From the IMG/VR virus record IMGVR_UViG_3300025073_000032, positions 1 to 64,000 of that record: a stretch of 64,000 nt of DNA; one strand, 5' to 3'. Origin of the DNA: a virus (Duplodnaviria > Caudoviricetes). This document shows positions 9,583 to 23,455 of the stretch, one piece after another. Made by a program: the position numbers and the translations under genes. The stretch's first letter is position 1. Each line of letters starts with the position of its first letter. Below the pieces are notes generated by a model. It was given only the letters and a program-made list of their open reading frames with translations, was not told the origin of the DNA and made no database searches.

Positions 9583-10386
9583 TTATTCTGCTTTCTGTTG
9601 TAGATAACCAAGTGTATCGAGCTTTGATAATATTTCTTTTGCTTGATTCTTATCATACCCTCGTTTAGTGATTACGTCTATTGCTTCTTGATAATTAAGC
9701 ATAGACTTCTCAGAATGTTTATTACACTTCTTGCATTTACTGCCTTCTTTTTGGCATTTACATTCACCGTCAATGCTCTGTTTTCTCAATGCAGCACCAC
9801 CTTCCATATCAGTAGATTGCTCATACCCTGTCTCCAAAGCTTTGATGCATTCCTTGTTACAGTGTAAACAAGTTTGAGAGCTTATATTGGAACACATACT
9901 CTTCATCAGTACTTCCATTGTACATTCAGAGTTAACTGGGCAATGTGTGATAGCTACGTTTGTCACATTGCATTTGACTACTCTATTAGAACTTTTCAAA
10001 TCACGTTTGACTTGATTCCCTTCTACAGAGAATCCAAGCTTGCGGTTGGACTTCTGGAGCGCGTTGGCAAGTTCCCATATCTCGTCGGACTTCCGATAGC
10101 CTTTCAGCAAATACCCTTCGACATACCAGCCTTTACCTTCGTGATACTCTACTTTTGTGGGATAGCCAAGAACACCGGCAGTAGTACGATCATGATTATC
10201 ATTGAACCAACCTGACTTTAGGAAGTCAGTAAAATCCAGACCCTTCTGAACAAGAATTTCACCCTGCTTGTCAAGAGCCTCAGTAGAAGCATAGCCACAT
10301 ATTCTACGTGACTGTTCACCCTCTTCTGCCTTTTCAATACAGTCAAATTCAAAGAATAACTGGAAGTCTGATTTGTGTCTCATCAC
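9583..10386 (-). CDS. Prohead maturation protease (HK97/assemblin-like)
   Basis: GYASTEALDKQGE, FNDNH (His), LGFSVEG (Ser), VAITHCPVN motifs. Confidence 0.9.
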   Translation of the reverse strand: MMRHKSDFQLFFEFDCIEKAEEGEQSRRICGYASTEALDKQGEILVQKGLDFTDFLKSGWFNDNHDRTTAGVLGYPTKVEYHEGKGWYVEGYLLKGYRKSDEIWELANALQKSNRKLGFSVEGNQVKRDLKSSNRVVKCNVTNVAITHCPVNSECTMEVLMKSMCSNISSQTCLHCNKECIKALETGYEQSTDMEGGAALRKQSIDGECKCQKEGSKCKKCNKHSEKSMLNYQEAIDVITKRGYDKNQAKEILSKLDTLGYLQQKAE

Positions 10387-10685
10387 TTACCCTCTTGATT
10401 AAGCCCGAAATGAGTACCTATATTATGTAATAGCTTTCTTAAGCGTTCTTTTATAGTGCTTTCAGAAGCTATTGAGCTTATAGCCATCATATTTAGAGTA
10501 TGAATGTGTCTTATTACATCTTTTTCTAGCTCATTCATATCATCTTCATAGCTACGTTTTCTACTGTCATGTACCTGTTCCAGCTTACCATTTCTTACTC
10601 TTTGGTAGTCTGATTTATCCAATTCAATATCAGAGAACCCTTTACTTATCACGTTATCTGAATAATCATCCAAAGAAACTGACAT
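10383..10685 (-). CDS. Small protein carrying tag A (putative internal head protein)
   Basis: LDKSDYQRVRNGKLEQVHDSRKR; its stop overlaps the protease start. Confidence 0.65.
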   Translation of the reverse strand: MSVSLDDYSDNVISKGFSDIELDKSDYQRVRNGKLEQVHDSRKRSYEDDMNELEKDVIRHIHTLNMMAISSIASESTIKERLRKLLHNIGTHFGLNQEGK

Positions 10686-10856
10686 ACTATTTTACCCCTC
10701 TCTTTACTTTATAATGTATACTCACTGTTTGTCATTTTCTTTTTTCATTGTCTGTGTTTCGATAGTCTCAAGCAACTTATCTCCAACAGCATTTAGCTGC
10801 TTATAATATAACAGAATACTGTTTAATACCTGTTCAGCCTGTTCTTTCATCATAGC

Positions 10857-21127: not shown

Positions 21128-21900
21128 TATTCACGATACAGACGACTAATGCTTATCTCCTCTATGTCAAATCGTCCAGGTTCATAGATATTTACCAGCA
21201 TTACACCCCTCCAGAAAGGATTAGCGCACCCTTCAGTGAACGGTTCATCTTTCTCGAAATAACAACCGCAAGTCAGAACTTGTATAATATTCTCTTCACC
21301 CTGTCTTCTTCCACACAGTCCTTCTTTCCTATGTGTATGAGCAAAGATGATCGACTTGGATGTATTCTCAAATACTCTGAATATGGCCATTTTCCCATCA
21401 ATAGCCTTGCCGGCTTGATTCATAACAGCATGAGTGAAAAGCACATTCTCTATCTCCAAATAGTGCTTGTACTCTATAATATTAAATCCACGTTCAACTA
21501 AACATAGGTCTTCTCTAGGATCAACAAAGCCCTCCATAGCTGGATTATCTTCGATGAACTTAACATACCATGCTTCATGGTTTCCCATCAGGTAGTACTT
21601 TTGTGGATTGTATACAGGTCTATGGTTTTTACGTTGATTTTCTTGAAGTTCTATAAGAGGATGGAGCAACATGTTCATAGCACAGTTGCCAAAAGCGAGG
21701 TCTTTTCGGTAGCGTCTACCTTCAATGGTTACTTTCTTGTTCTTATCCCAGTGAGAAAGAGACTGCATTCCTAAAAAATCACCCATAGTTACAATCCAAT
21801 CTGGCTTTCTTTTTACTATTAGATTGCCTACAGGCATAAATCGGAACAAATCCTGATCCTGATTTATATGACCATCAGGAATGATAAGCCCTGTACTCAT
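21121..21900 (-). CDS. Calcineurin-like metallophosphoesterase
   Basis: IPDGH, MGD, MGNHE, FTH, AHTH motifs. Confidence 0.88.
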   Translation of the reverse strand: MSTGLIIPDGHINQDQDLFRFMPVGNLIVKRKPDWIVTMGDFLGMQSLSHWDKNKKVTIEGRRYRKDLAFGNCAMNMLLHPLIELQENQRKNHRPVYNPQKYYLMGNHEAWYVKFIEDNPAMEGFVDPREDLCLVERGFNIIEYKHYLEIENVLFTHAVMNQAGKAIDGKMAIFRVFENTSKSIIFAHTHRKEGLCGRRQGEENIIQVLTCGCYFEKDEPFTEGCANPFWRGVMLVNIYEPGRFDIEEISISRLYREYC

Positions 21901-21913
21901 TGGGTTCTATCTC

Positions 21914-23455
21914 CTATTTGACCCTAATCTTCACCAAAGCCTTGTTATTATATTCTCCTAGAGTGTATTCATTCTTGTCATAGTCAGTAATCCCATAGCC
22001 TGATAATAGGCTCCTGAGTTTCTTCTGTCCCATATCAAGGAACTGTGACAGAAATGTATCATACTCATTGTGTTTGACTGTTATCTCAATAACAGCGTCA
22101 TGGGAACTACGCACACTTTGAAGCTCTCCTGCAAGAATACCCATAGTGAACTTAGGTGTCATCTGGTTGATAGATGCTACAGCAGCTTTCAAGTCCCTTT
22201 TTAGGTTCTTGTTATACTCACTAGCATCTATGCGTTTGTATAACTCTTTACGTGCAGACTCAAACCATTCCATATCTTGCTGTTTAGCTGCAAGCCCCAT
22301 ATCTGTAAGCAAATCAGTTGACCCATCGATATACTGAAACAGAGGTGGAATCTTTTCCTTACTGAACATGCTTGTGTTATCTGCAATTTGAGTGGTGAAC
22401 AGAACAGGATCGCCCAGGCTTAAGTCGGTCTTCTGGTGAAGTCTAGTGATGTTGAGTATTCTATTATACTCTTCCTCACTAAATATCTTACCTTCGTTCC
22501 ACTGTGATTTCTGCTCTTTGAGTATCTTCTCAGAAAACTCAGGGTGCTTACTGGAAGCTACCGCACTATTGGGACCAGTTGCTCTCACAATAGGCACTGT
22601 GTAACCTACGTCATGGTTTATTTGCACAAACATCCCCATAAGTTTTTCTTTTGGGGTTACGGTAACACCTTGAGAGTTGAGCACATCAATCATCTTATTT
22701 TGATAGAGTATATTACCGACGATATGCCTGATCCCATGATCGGAATAAACCTGTCTAGTTGATTCCACATCCTGGTAAATAAGCTTCCGTATAGAATCGA
22801 TTCCCATTGCCTGTATGTCGGAAGCATTGGCATGTGATAGATCGGCTACTTTCAAGACCTTCTCTAACTGATTAACATACTGGTGCATGAGGTCTGCTGT
22901 ATCCCCAGCAAGCCAGCCTGTGTACAGAGATAGTTCGGAACGCATGTCATCAGCTATAATAGAAACATGTTCTGTATTGAACTTACCTTTTAGCTCTGAC
23001 AGAGTAGAAGGTTTCCGACTAATGCCCTGGAGGTTCTTTTGCATTTGTCGGTATATATCTTTTCTATTAGCCTGATTCATCAGCTCAGCCTGACTGATTT
23101 GGTCAAGCTTACGTGTATCTTTGCTGTAGTCAATGTTAGGCTCTACACTGATCTGAAGTCTCCTGGTCTGTTGATTAGCCTCTTTGTTCATTCCAGTAGC
23201 TACCCAGCGTTTTACTCTATGACCTTTTTTATCTATTACATCACGTAAAACAAGTCGCTCTTTATGTAAAGCAGACTTCTGTAACGTAACTTTAGGAGGA
23301 TCACTTTTCGCTATTCTCCAATCACCGAAAGATTGATTATGTGAACAAGCCCCAGCAAGTTCAAGGAACTCTAGCTCTTTTCTGTCCTGATCGTTCTCAG
23401 GCTCCAAGAATTTGACTTCCCCTCCGTCTATTGTACTTACAACACGAGTTTTCAT
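21914..23455 (-). CDS. HD-domain phosphohydrolase with N-terminal tag-B-like segment
   Basis: DHGIRH...NHDVGY...HPEFS...H...IADN; LQKSALHKERLVLRDVIDKKGHRVKRWV near the N-terminus. Confidence 0.7.
   Translation of the reverse strand: MKTRVVSTIDGGEVKFLEPENDQDRKELEFLELAGACSHNQSFGDWRIAKSDPPKVTLQKSALHKERLVLRDVIDKKGHRVKRWVATGMNKEANQQTRRLQISVEPNIDYSKDTRKLDQISQAELMNQANRKDIYRQMQKNLQGISRKPSTLSELKGKFNTEHVSIIADDMRSELSLYTGWLAGDTADLMHQYVNQLEKVLKVADLSHANASDIQAMGIDSIRKLIYQDVESTRQVYSDHGIRHIVGNILYQNKMIDVLNSQGVTVTPKEKLMGMFVQINHDVGYTVPIVRATGPNSAVASSKHPEFSEKILKEQKSQWNEGKIFSEEEYNRILNITRLHQKTDLSLGDPVLFTTQIADNTSMFSKEKIPPLFQYIDGSTDLLTDMGLAAKQQDMEWFESARKELYKRIDASEYNKNLKRDLKAAVASINQMTPKFTMGILAGELQSVRSSHDAVIEITVKHNEYDTFLSQFLDMGQKKLRSLLSGYGITDYDKNEYTLGEYNNKALVKIRVK

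Follow-up and report, generated by a model that had tools for sequence, protein, structure and literature searches.

The stretch of DNA analyzed here (the window; 64,000 nucleotides) makes up the first 64 kb of a virus record that consists of one contig of 102,805 bp (IMGVR_UViG_3300025073_000032; Caudoviricetes). Its minus strand carries every gene of the 7.4- to 23.5-kb interval, among them those of a phage head module and, around the portal gene, a set of putative cargo genes. In the direction of transcription, a 513-amino-acid (aa) gene, a metallophosphoesterase gene, two small genes, and a 1923-aa gene lie upstream of the portal gene; 336-aa, 349-aa, and 100-aa genes follow it, and then those of the prohead protease, the scaffold, and the major capsid protein. 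Two short basic peptides, tag1 and tag2, precede modules of the putative cargo proteins next to a site of the form hydrophobic-x-K-[S/A] (h-x-K-[S/A]), at which the prohead protease may cut. An earlier note on this DNA had read these elements as one reusable grammar of cleavage site, tag, and effector, used in five genes to load enzymes into the head, release them there, and deliver them with the DNA.

Head module and putative cargo genes

All features of this interval are given by their coordinates on the minus strand. The major capsid protein (472 aa; 7489..8907; phrog_752) is of the SPO1 Gp6.1 type, matching Gp6.1 of PDB entry 9vel at E 1e-96 and entries 5lii and 9row at E ~1e-33, and has a predicted cut (↓) after K22 (AELNK↓ALTTGY). 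With rising coordinates, it is followed in the head module by the scaffolding protein (204 aa, net charge -11; 8944..9558; phrog_15087), the prohead (head maturation) protease (9583..10386; phrog_1028, E 2e-61), and the portal protein (12882..14420; PF04860, 61.3 bits); the large terminase subunit is encoded at 45250-46701. The capsid protein, protease, scaffold, and portal are homologous to those of Herelleviridae and stand in the order of this SPO1/Twort-type head module. The capsid protein is ~40% identical to Herelleviridae capsid proteins (779 Herelleviridae-like records), the protease shares 40-43% identity with its CP-51 and SPO1 counterparts in BLASTP, and in 50,697 deposited phage records megablast found no near-identical DNA match (at least ~85%) to the region. 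Thus, judged by sequence, the source phage is a distant, smaller relative of Herelleviridae.

The largest cargo gene (14483..20254) encodes a 1923-aa polyvalent protein, in which we read the succession tag1-ParB-like, tag1-kinase-like, tag1-X, HAD, tag1-DUF7178, linker, tag2, and C-terminal region. Beyond the portal gene, the 336-aa gene (11903..12913) specifies a leader, tag1, an S-adenosylmethionine (SAM) lyase, a second tag1, and a helical C-terminal module; the 349-aa gene (10857..11906), an 8-aa leader (FTIEK↓A), tag2, and an unknown module; and the 100-aa gene (10383..10685), a 24-aa leader, tag1, and 54 aa of unknown function. The 513-aa gene (21914..23455), which has no Pfam or PHROG family, contains a basic stretch after TLQK↓S (23168-23293) and, in our own reading, a possible HD-like motif.

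Family searches gave these modules support of different strengths. Residues 67-178 of the 336-aa protein match SAM lyase PF23780 with 37.7 bits (cut-off 28), so that this protein carries a predicted SAM lyase. In the 1923-aa protein, DUF7178 scores 108.6 bits and HAD matches phrog_1238 at E 8.5e-10; the ParB-like nuclease is a weak match below the Pfam cut-off (phrog_1033, E 1e-4), and the kinase-like module is a weak HipA-like match that also matches separate phage proteins. As had been proposed, the ParB-like, HipA-like kinase (weak), HAD, DUF7178, and SAM lyase modules are mutually unrelated. Other phages match the 1923-aa protein piece by piece, and these matches end at the tags: residues 176-392 have counterparts in separate proteins of Felix-O1-like phages and of Gordonia phages, residues 546-648 in HAD-type proteins, and residues 702-1049 in DUF7178 proteins. 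An ADP-ribosyltransferase-like R-S-E motif at residues ~1660-1740 is our own tentative reading and found no family support in Pfam and PHROG searches.

No peptidase family was found in the cargo proteins in Pfam or NCBIfam. An embedded zincin peptidase was ruled out, since the 1923-aa protein has no such family match and its sole HExxH (residue 417), which lies beside a tag, is HQxxH in a sister phage described below. A Phage_Mu_F (MuF, SPP1 gp7) domain matched none of the five proteins in Pfam and PHROG.

Two tags at module boundaries

Tag1 has the consensus h-x-K-[S/A]-x-Y-x-R-x-R-N-G-K-x-E-x-V-H-D-x-R. The pattern K-[S/A]-x-Y-x-R-x-[RK]-N-G-K-x-E-x-V-H retrieved seven copies, all on the minus strand, with four in the 1923-aa gene, two in the 336-aa gene, and one in the 100-aa gene. 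A profile built from the seven gave 59-68 bits per copy when run on the complete 102,805-bp genome in six frames (1615 fragments), where the next-best fragment scored 6 bits. Every copy lies at a module boundary of these three genes beside the portal gene. In the 1923-aa protein, the copies occupy residues 1-34 (20153..20254; 64.5 bits), 139-172 (19739..19840; 65.3 bits), 389-422 (18989..19090; 63.1 bits), and 646-678 (18221..18319; 61.5 bits). The 336-aa protein has its first copy at 12779..12880 (LTIDK↓SYYTRMKNGKLEHVHDKR; 66.5 bits) and its second at 12182..12280 (SVFEK↓SDYMRYRNNRYEYVHDSR; 59.2 bits), where the metagenomic homologue P0005 stops; that of the 100-aa protein lies at 10536..10637 (IELDK↓SDYQRVRNGKLEQVHDSR; 67.6 bits). 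The DNA of the copies diverges widely at synonymous positions (mean column identity, 65%), which argues that conservation acts on the peptide. These many synonymous differences also rule out a recent DNA duplication or a recombination-hotspot repeat as the source of tag1.

Tag2 has the core L-[IV]-P-x-x-K-x-V-x-x-x-G-[KR]-T-F-x-[RQ]-x-Y-W; a longer form of its consensus, LVP-x-x-K-x-V-x-x-x-G-[KR]-T-F-x-R-x-x-W-V-x-P, runs on past the W. A copy with its leader forms the N terminus of the 349-aa protein (11772..11906; 75.5 bits), and another, with a VVK↓S leader, spans residues ~1106-1155 of the 1923-aa protein (16790..16939; 66.2 bits), the tag itself lying at residue ~1128. A Herelleviridae-only model made of four CP-51 and LysYB1 rows recovered them at E 1.4e-7 and 1.1e-4, respectively, with the next fragment in the window's genome at E 2.6. 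The 513-aa protein, whose basic stretch is loosely similar, matched a tag2 model only when its own rows were included, and without the 513/514-aa rows it gave no match at E≤10. It is thus not an independent tag2 member, and of the five tagged genes first proposed, those for the 1923-aa, 336-aa, and 100-aa proteins (tag1) and the 349-aa and 1923-aa proteins (tag2) hold. The accompanying proposal, that most modules follow a hydrophobic-x-K-[S/A] site and a basic tag, is borne out at every tag1 copy and fails for the HAD module, which has a site and no tag.

The two tags are both basic (net +2 to +5). Homology between them was dropped because their cores do not align; in a profile-profile comparison, only the 5-column leader aligned, without significance.

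Distribution of the tags in other phages

Tag2 recurs in Bacillus-type Spounavirinae. CP-51 has five copies, in gp194, which is encoded directly after the terminase, in gp10, where an internal tag2 follows a ParB-like module matching phrog_26588, in the GNAT-like protein gp27, in gp28, which contains HExxH, and in gp30. The Lysinibacillus phage LysYB1 has one, in the 872-aa protein M3_0224, which carries a C-terminal PARP domain (53.6 bits). The single SPO1 copy is in gp5.3, a 138-aa protein encoded directly upstream of the portal, the remainder of which is a lysine-rich tail; the gp5.3 N terminus occurs in 26 phage records (25 Bacillus and 1 Exiguobacterium), annotated hypothetical in every case. 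The tag2 proteins of all three phages are located between terminase and portal. Like the window's copies, they combine tag2 with an h-x-K↓[S/A/G] leader in a phage with this protease, scaffold, and capsid type; unlike the window's cargo, they lack tag1, mostly have one tag per protein, and are all annotated hypothetical.

Two genes upstream of the LysYB1 tag2-PARP protein, M3_0222 (7824-8684; 286 aa), which has no Pfam match, ends in THPNCTCP. In our reading, this ending resembles MuF/SPP1 gp7 head proteins. No M3_0222-like gene was seen in the region of the window's phage.

Tag1 is far rarer. Searching 1,835,955,588 representative proteins with its profile returned 11 at E≤0.001: two of the window's own, two of the sister phage, and seven metagenomic proteins (P0005-P0011). 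The latter are singletons or nearly so, on contigs no longer than 10.7 kb, and three of the seven look high-GC and have a two-residue insertion in the hairpin. An alignment of 20 copies drawn from 9 sources, of which two related phages contribute 13 and for which K-S was part of the search profile, has K, Y, R, V, and H as invariant residues; K is followed by S in 18 copies and by A in the other 2, and a hydrophobic residue stands two positions before it throughout. The three high-GC proteins, from unrelated contigs, are strongly enriched in sites relative to 1000 shuffles, namely, P0009 (8 versus 0.81), P0011 (7 versus 1.07), and P0006 (7 versus 1.79), suggesting that tag1 and the site motif travel together beyond this phage lineage.

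At the DNA level, a degenerate tag1 pattern found the sister phage's contig as its sole match in a JGI metagenome scan, and an insertion-variant pattern had no match among the genome contigs scanned. IMG/VR scans with P0011 and P0008 returned nothing. In tblastn against the phage collection, a 35-aa tag1 copy had no match at E≤10 and the 100-aa protein had two chance-level matches only (E 8). Residues 12-24 of the 1923-aa protein, in the tag1 hairpin, weakly match phrog_21154, a 47-position family of unknown function (E 1.6e-5); a related hairpin may therefore exist in a few deposited phages and have been missed by tblastn. A second leader, LDDY-x-D-x-V-[IV]-x-K-[GS]-F, stands before tag1 in the 100-aa protein, in P0005, and in the 105-aa metagenomic protein P0007, and appears to be one more reusable N-terminal element, carrying an h-x-K↓[G/S] site of its own.

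A candidate cut site shared with head proteins

We counted [LIVFM]-x-K-[SA] in each protein and compared it with 300 composition-preserving shuffles. The scaffold has 9 sites against 0.83 expected, a number reached in 0 of 300 shuffles. Enrichment is also found in the protease (4 versus 0.86; p 0.017), the 336-aa protein (4 versus 1.06; p 0.01), and the 1923-aa protein (14 versus 7.2; p 0.007). The capsid protein is at chance (1 versus 1.2), its one site being LNK↓A at residue 22, and so is the portal protein (1 versus 1.5). The recurrence of K-[S/A] sites proposed for the head proteins thus holds for the capsid LNK↓A, the scaffold, and the protease, and not for the portal.

The same pattern extends to related phages. 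The SPO1 scaffold has 11 sites against 1.07 expected, those of CP-51 and LysYB1 are likewise rich in h-x-K-S, and LNK↓A is common to the capsid proteins of SPO1 (LNKAL), CP-51, and LysYB1. For the Twort-type capsid, the 439-aa chain of 9row begins 24 residues into the 463-aa sequence of 5lii, and 9row residue 4 aligns to 5lii residue ~28, consistent with a mature protein that starts at the S after V-V-K. Site-rich scaffolds, together with LNK↓A and VVK↓S in capsid proteins, suggest that h-x-K↓[S/A] behaves like a signature of this protease family's substrates. In papers on Bc431v3, Felix O1, CKA15, and Goe2/3, nothing was found on cleavage after Lys.

In the cargo proteins, a leader of the form F-[TV]-I-x-K↓[S/A] precedes both tag1 and tag2, though their cores are unrelated, and the distance from site to core in tag2 ranges from 6 to 16 residues; the site is thus separable from the tag. 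Leaders upstream of the predicted cut are 6-24 residues long and conserved only in their last five positions. In the 1923-aa protein, cuts are predicted at residues 9, 146, 396, 548, 653, 1071, and 1111, which would yield tag1-ParB, tag1-kinase-like, tag1-X, untagged HAD, tag1-DUF7178, a 40-residue linker, and the tag2-C-terminal product. In the 336-aa protein, the cuts are predicted at residues 19 and 218.

The protease itself has two further features. In its C-terminal part, residues ~183-207 (K↓ALETGYEQSTDMEGGAALRKQS) copy residues 22-46 of the capsid protein, its predicted mature N terminus (K↓ALTTGYEQTTSMTGGAALRVQS). This mimicry also occurs in the CP-51 and SPO1 proteases, and phrog_1028 covers both proteins; it may be a way of building the protease into the prohead. 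Between residues ~155 and 235 lie the cysteine-rich insertions CSNISSQTCLHCNKEC and GECKCQKEGSKCKKCNK, which have no counterpart in the CP-51 and SPO1 proteases and might bind metal.

Cassette shuffling in a sister phage

One related contig in IMG/VR (103,540 bp) represents the sister phage, in which head proteins are 66-86% identical to those of the window and cargo genes 29-73%. Its polyvalent gene is split into genes of 1070 aa and 854 aa (sister contig 7406-13182), with the cassettes in the order tag1-DUF7178, tag1-kinase-like, tag1-X, tag1-RadC/JAB-like. The RadC/JAB-like module (HNHPSG) has been gained behind a fourth tag1, ParB is absent, HAD is deleted directly after its first motif (DxD), and the 100-aa gene is missing. 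The sister phage has exactly six tag1 copies, which are confined to the two orthologous genes. It keeps each of the seven boundary sites of the 1923-aa protein, at 29-63% identity, and none of the five interior sites of the C-terminal region. The stand-alone metagenomic SAM lyase homologue P0005 consists of a leader, tag1, and the enzyme, and ends exactly at the second tag1 of the 336-aa protein. Cassette reordering, boundary-site conservation, and the end of P0005 point to the site-tag-module combination as a unit of evolution; among our data, the sister-phage comparison and P0005 are the strongest evidence for it. The reusable grammar of the earlier note is supported to this extent, by the shared leader, the reordering, gain, and loss of cassettes at tag boundaries, and the conserved boundary sites, and loses its five-gene scope.

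Neighboring genes

Other genes of the window are listed here for completeness. An HNH endonuclease gene (23530-23796) adjoins the 513-aa gene, and a phrog_1158 gene (125 aa; 20604-20981), annotated as a tail assembly chaperone, lies among the cargo genes. The DNA polymerase (59241-62750) is encoded in two genes, for the exonuclease part (61566-62750) and the polymerase part (59241-60599), which are parted by two inserted genes of 178 and 145 aa. We take the inserts, read without a search, to be HAD-like and deoxyribosyltransferase-like. An Rfam intron was not found in the split DNA polymerase region.

Discussion

The observation made in the earlier note is largely correct and lies well beyond chance, and its interpretation is plausible. 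We hold it to be about evenly balanced whether the portal-flanking genes encode virion-packaged polyvalent effectors that the prohead protease cuts apart, with the tags as loading or retention signals. On this reading, cargo of the polyvalent type would be made late, beside the head proteins, as polyproteins of cassettes, each consisting of an h-x-K↓[S/A] (or G) site, a basic beta-hairpin tag, and an enzyme. The SPO1-type prohead protease would trim the capsid protein after LNK, shred the scaffold at the same motif, and also cut the cargo at cassette boundaries inside the prohead. The 1923-aa protein would thereby give rise to ~7 products and the 336-aa protein to 2, with a tag at each new N terminus. 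Since there is one tag per module and cassettes occur in any order, fused or split, the tag would act on each module separately, in loading (e.g., by binding the acidic scaffold or the shell) or in retention within the head (e.g., by binding DNA). One tag per cassette would leave cassettes free to be fused, split, and swapped. The enzymes would then enter the host with the DNA, namely, the SAM lyase, the ParB-like nuclease, the kinase-like, HAD, and DUF7178 modules, and a possible ADP-ribosyltransferase.

Several known systems resemble parts of this scheme. In the text of Iyer et al. (2017, J Bacteriol, PMC5512222), phage-type polyvalent proteins are described as disparate domains in one polypeptide, encoded beside portal and virion genes and predicted to be packaged and injected. 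The 1923-aa and 336-aa proteins each combine at least two disparate domains, and the cargo genes flank the portal gene, beside those of protease, scaffold, and capsid. The repertoire is also alike, with ParB-like nuclease, kinase-like, ADP-ribosyltransferase-like, and nucleotide/phosphatase enzymes in the proteins that this text covers (PMC5512222). The same text assigns processing to an embedded zincin-like metallopeptidase, which is common and not universal (Iyer et al. 2017, PMC5512222). Here, in contrast, no zincin domain was found, and a repeated site of the prohead-protease type with a tag marks the boundaries. We found no mention of the tags in the text of that paper, the supplementary LPD catalogue of which (LPD1-40) may list them (PMC5512222). 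Our literature search, which covered papers without their supplementary files, found no description of tag1 or tag2 and no paper joining capsid targeting with polyvalent proteins.

As described in the text of PMC7411985, T4 IPI-III and Alt carry an N-terminal targeting peptide that is removed by gp21, are packaged, and are ejected, and an ADP-ribosyltransferase is among this cargo. The likeness lies in a short peptide and a prohead-protease site on proteins that are proposed to be packaged. The T4 signal, however, stands upstream of the cut and is lost with it, whereas the conserved tag of the window's proteins follows the predicted cut and would remain part of the product. The tags thus differ from a T4-type targeting sequence, the precedent from which the earlier note had argued, and loading is one of several roles they might have. 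T4 cleaves after Glu; here the predicted cut follows Lys. T4 cargo also consists of single proteins, in contrast to the multicassette polyproteins of the window. In phiKZ and SPN3US, the prohead protease processes many proteins inside the head at a single common motif, and their propeptides have been proposed to target them to the prohead, according to the text of PMC7411985. Those N-terminal propeptides comprise ~110-130 residues on separate proteins; a repeated short tag and cassette boundaries within a protein are missing, and these phages differ from the window's phage in capsid and protease lineage. What sets the window's system apart from T4 and SPN3US, which it otherwise resembles, is a tag on the retained side that is reiterated inside polyproteins, with predicted cleavage after Lys.

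A number of observations weigh against packaging and cleavage of tagged cassettes as we propose them. In contrast to the T4 signal, the tag would stay in place after the cut, and the HAD module (residues 549-645) has a conserved site and no tag. The leaders of N-terminal copies are just 6-9 residues long, so that their removal seems pointless, and the K-S of tag1 has a fixed position beside the hairpin, as if it were part of a small fold and not a cut site. No site enrichment was found in the 349-aa (1 versus 1.3) and 513-aa (2 versus 1.7) proteins, and the tag1 alignment leans on two related phages and a profile that contained K-S. The association of tags with this protease type and head location, which the earlier note had raised, holds for tag2 in CP-51, LysYB1, and SPO1 and breaks down in A511 and phage K, where no tag2 was found despite a like protease and capsid type. 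Tag1 was likewise not found in SPO1, CP-51, LysYB1, and A511; phages with this type of head thus have no general need of the tags. The window's phage is known from a metagenome-derived record alone, and structure prediction was of little help. AlphaFold2 modeling of the 336-aa protein from 4 alignment rows (mean pLDDT 35.8) placed low-confidence hairpins at both tag1 copies in a model too poor to show a fold. Prediction of tag1 complexes with the capsid protein and the scaffold scored 0.00 without controls and carries no weight either way.

Three other explanations were considered. The first, which we regard as rather unlikely, accepts packaging and cleavage and makes the tags small basic hairpins with affinity for DNA or for the portal/tail channel, so that each released enzyme would remain with the genome and exit along with it, or tethers acting in the host, with loading left to another determinant. 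The net charge of the tags, which would remain on the products, is in keeping with this idea, as is SPO1 gp5.3, in which tag2 is coupled with a long lysine-rich tail of a kind typical for internal proteins that bind DNA, and one tag per module would be sensible if it were needed after separation. Family searches, by contrast, returned no nucleic-acid-binding family for the tags, a 22-residue hairpin is small for specific binding, and the strong acidity of the scaffold (net -11) makes scaffold binding equally plausible.

More doubtful still is the absence of any cleavage, with the tags as small folded spacer or interaction domains, the proteins acting intact like the unprocessed N4 virion RNA polymerase, and the scaffold motif reflecting composition or a shared structural habit. 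The fixed distance of K-S to the tag1 hairpin, the alternating hydrophobic F-T-I-S-K, which hints at a strand, the low-confidence modeled hairpins, and the very short N-terminal leaders would fit such domains, and some polyvalent proteins are delivered unprocessed according to the text of Iyer et al. (2017, PMC5512222). Against it stand the leader shared by unrelated tag cores and the variable tag2 spacing, the conserved site without a tag at the X/HAD boundary and others after DUF7178, and the fit of the motif to the inferred capsid maturation site; composition is controlled for in the enrichment tests. A third explanation, that the products are not virion components but late cytoplasmic enzymes (e.g., for anti-defense or DNA modification) encoded in the head operon, with tags for oligomerization, regulation, or turnover, finds a parallel in the nonstructural metallophosphoesterase and HNH genes nearby and is very improbable given that in four separate phage groups the tag genes are closely packed between terminase and portal/protease, that their cut site is common to head substrates, and that phage polyvalent proteins are known in just this context in the text of Iyer et al. 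(2017, PMC5512222).

Packaged cassettes that are released by the prohead protease, the reading we prefer, would have consequences beyond this phage. To our knowledge, the selection of head-packed, injected proteins is understood for few models only (T4, P1, N4, and giant phages). The sequence suggests a compact rule, in which a protease site and one of two short tags stand before each enzyme. Such a rule, if correct, would account for the dismantling of polyvalent effectors that lack a peptidase of their own, make injected anti-defense proteins recognizable in SPO1-like phages, and offer a way into SPO1 gp5.3 and those CP-51 proteins that are now annotated hypothetical. Since cuts after lysine resemble tryptic ends, we infer that trypsin-based virion proteomics would probably overlook them. 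A bolder possibility, which we hold only tentatively, is that tag1 or tag2 with h-x-K↓[S/A] are portable, self-sufficient signals for loading, head-protease release, and delivery of any attached protein. If so, they would constitute a natural plug-and-play cargo grammar for shuffling anti-defense enzymes, and one that could be used to package chosen proteins in Bacillus phages such as SPO1.

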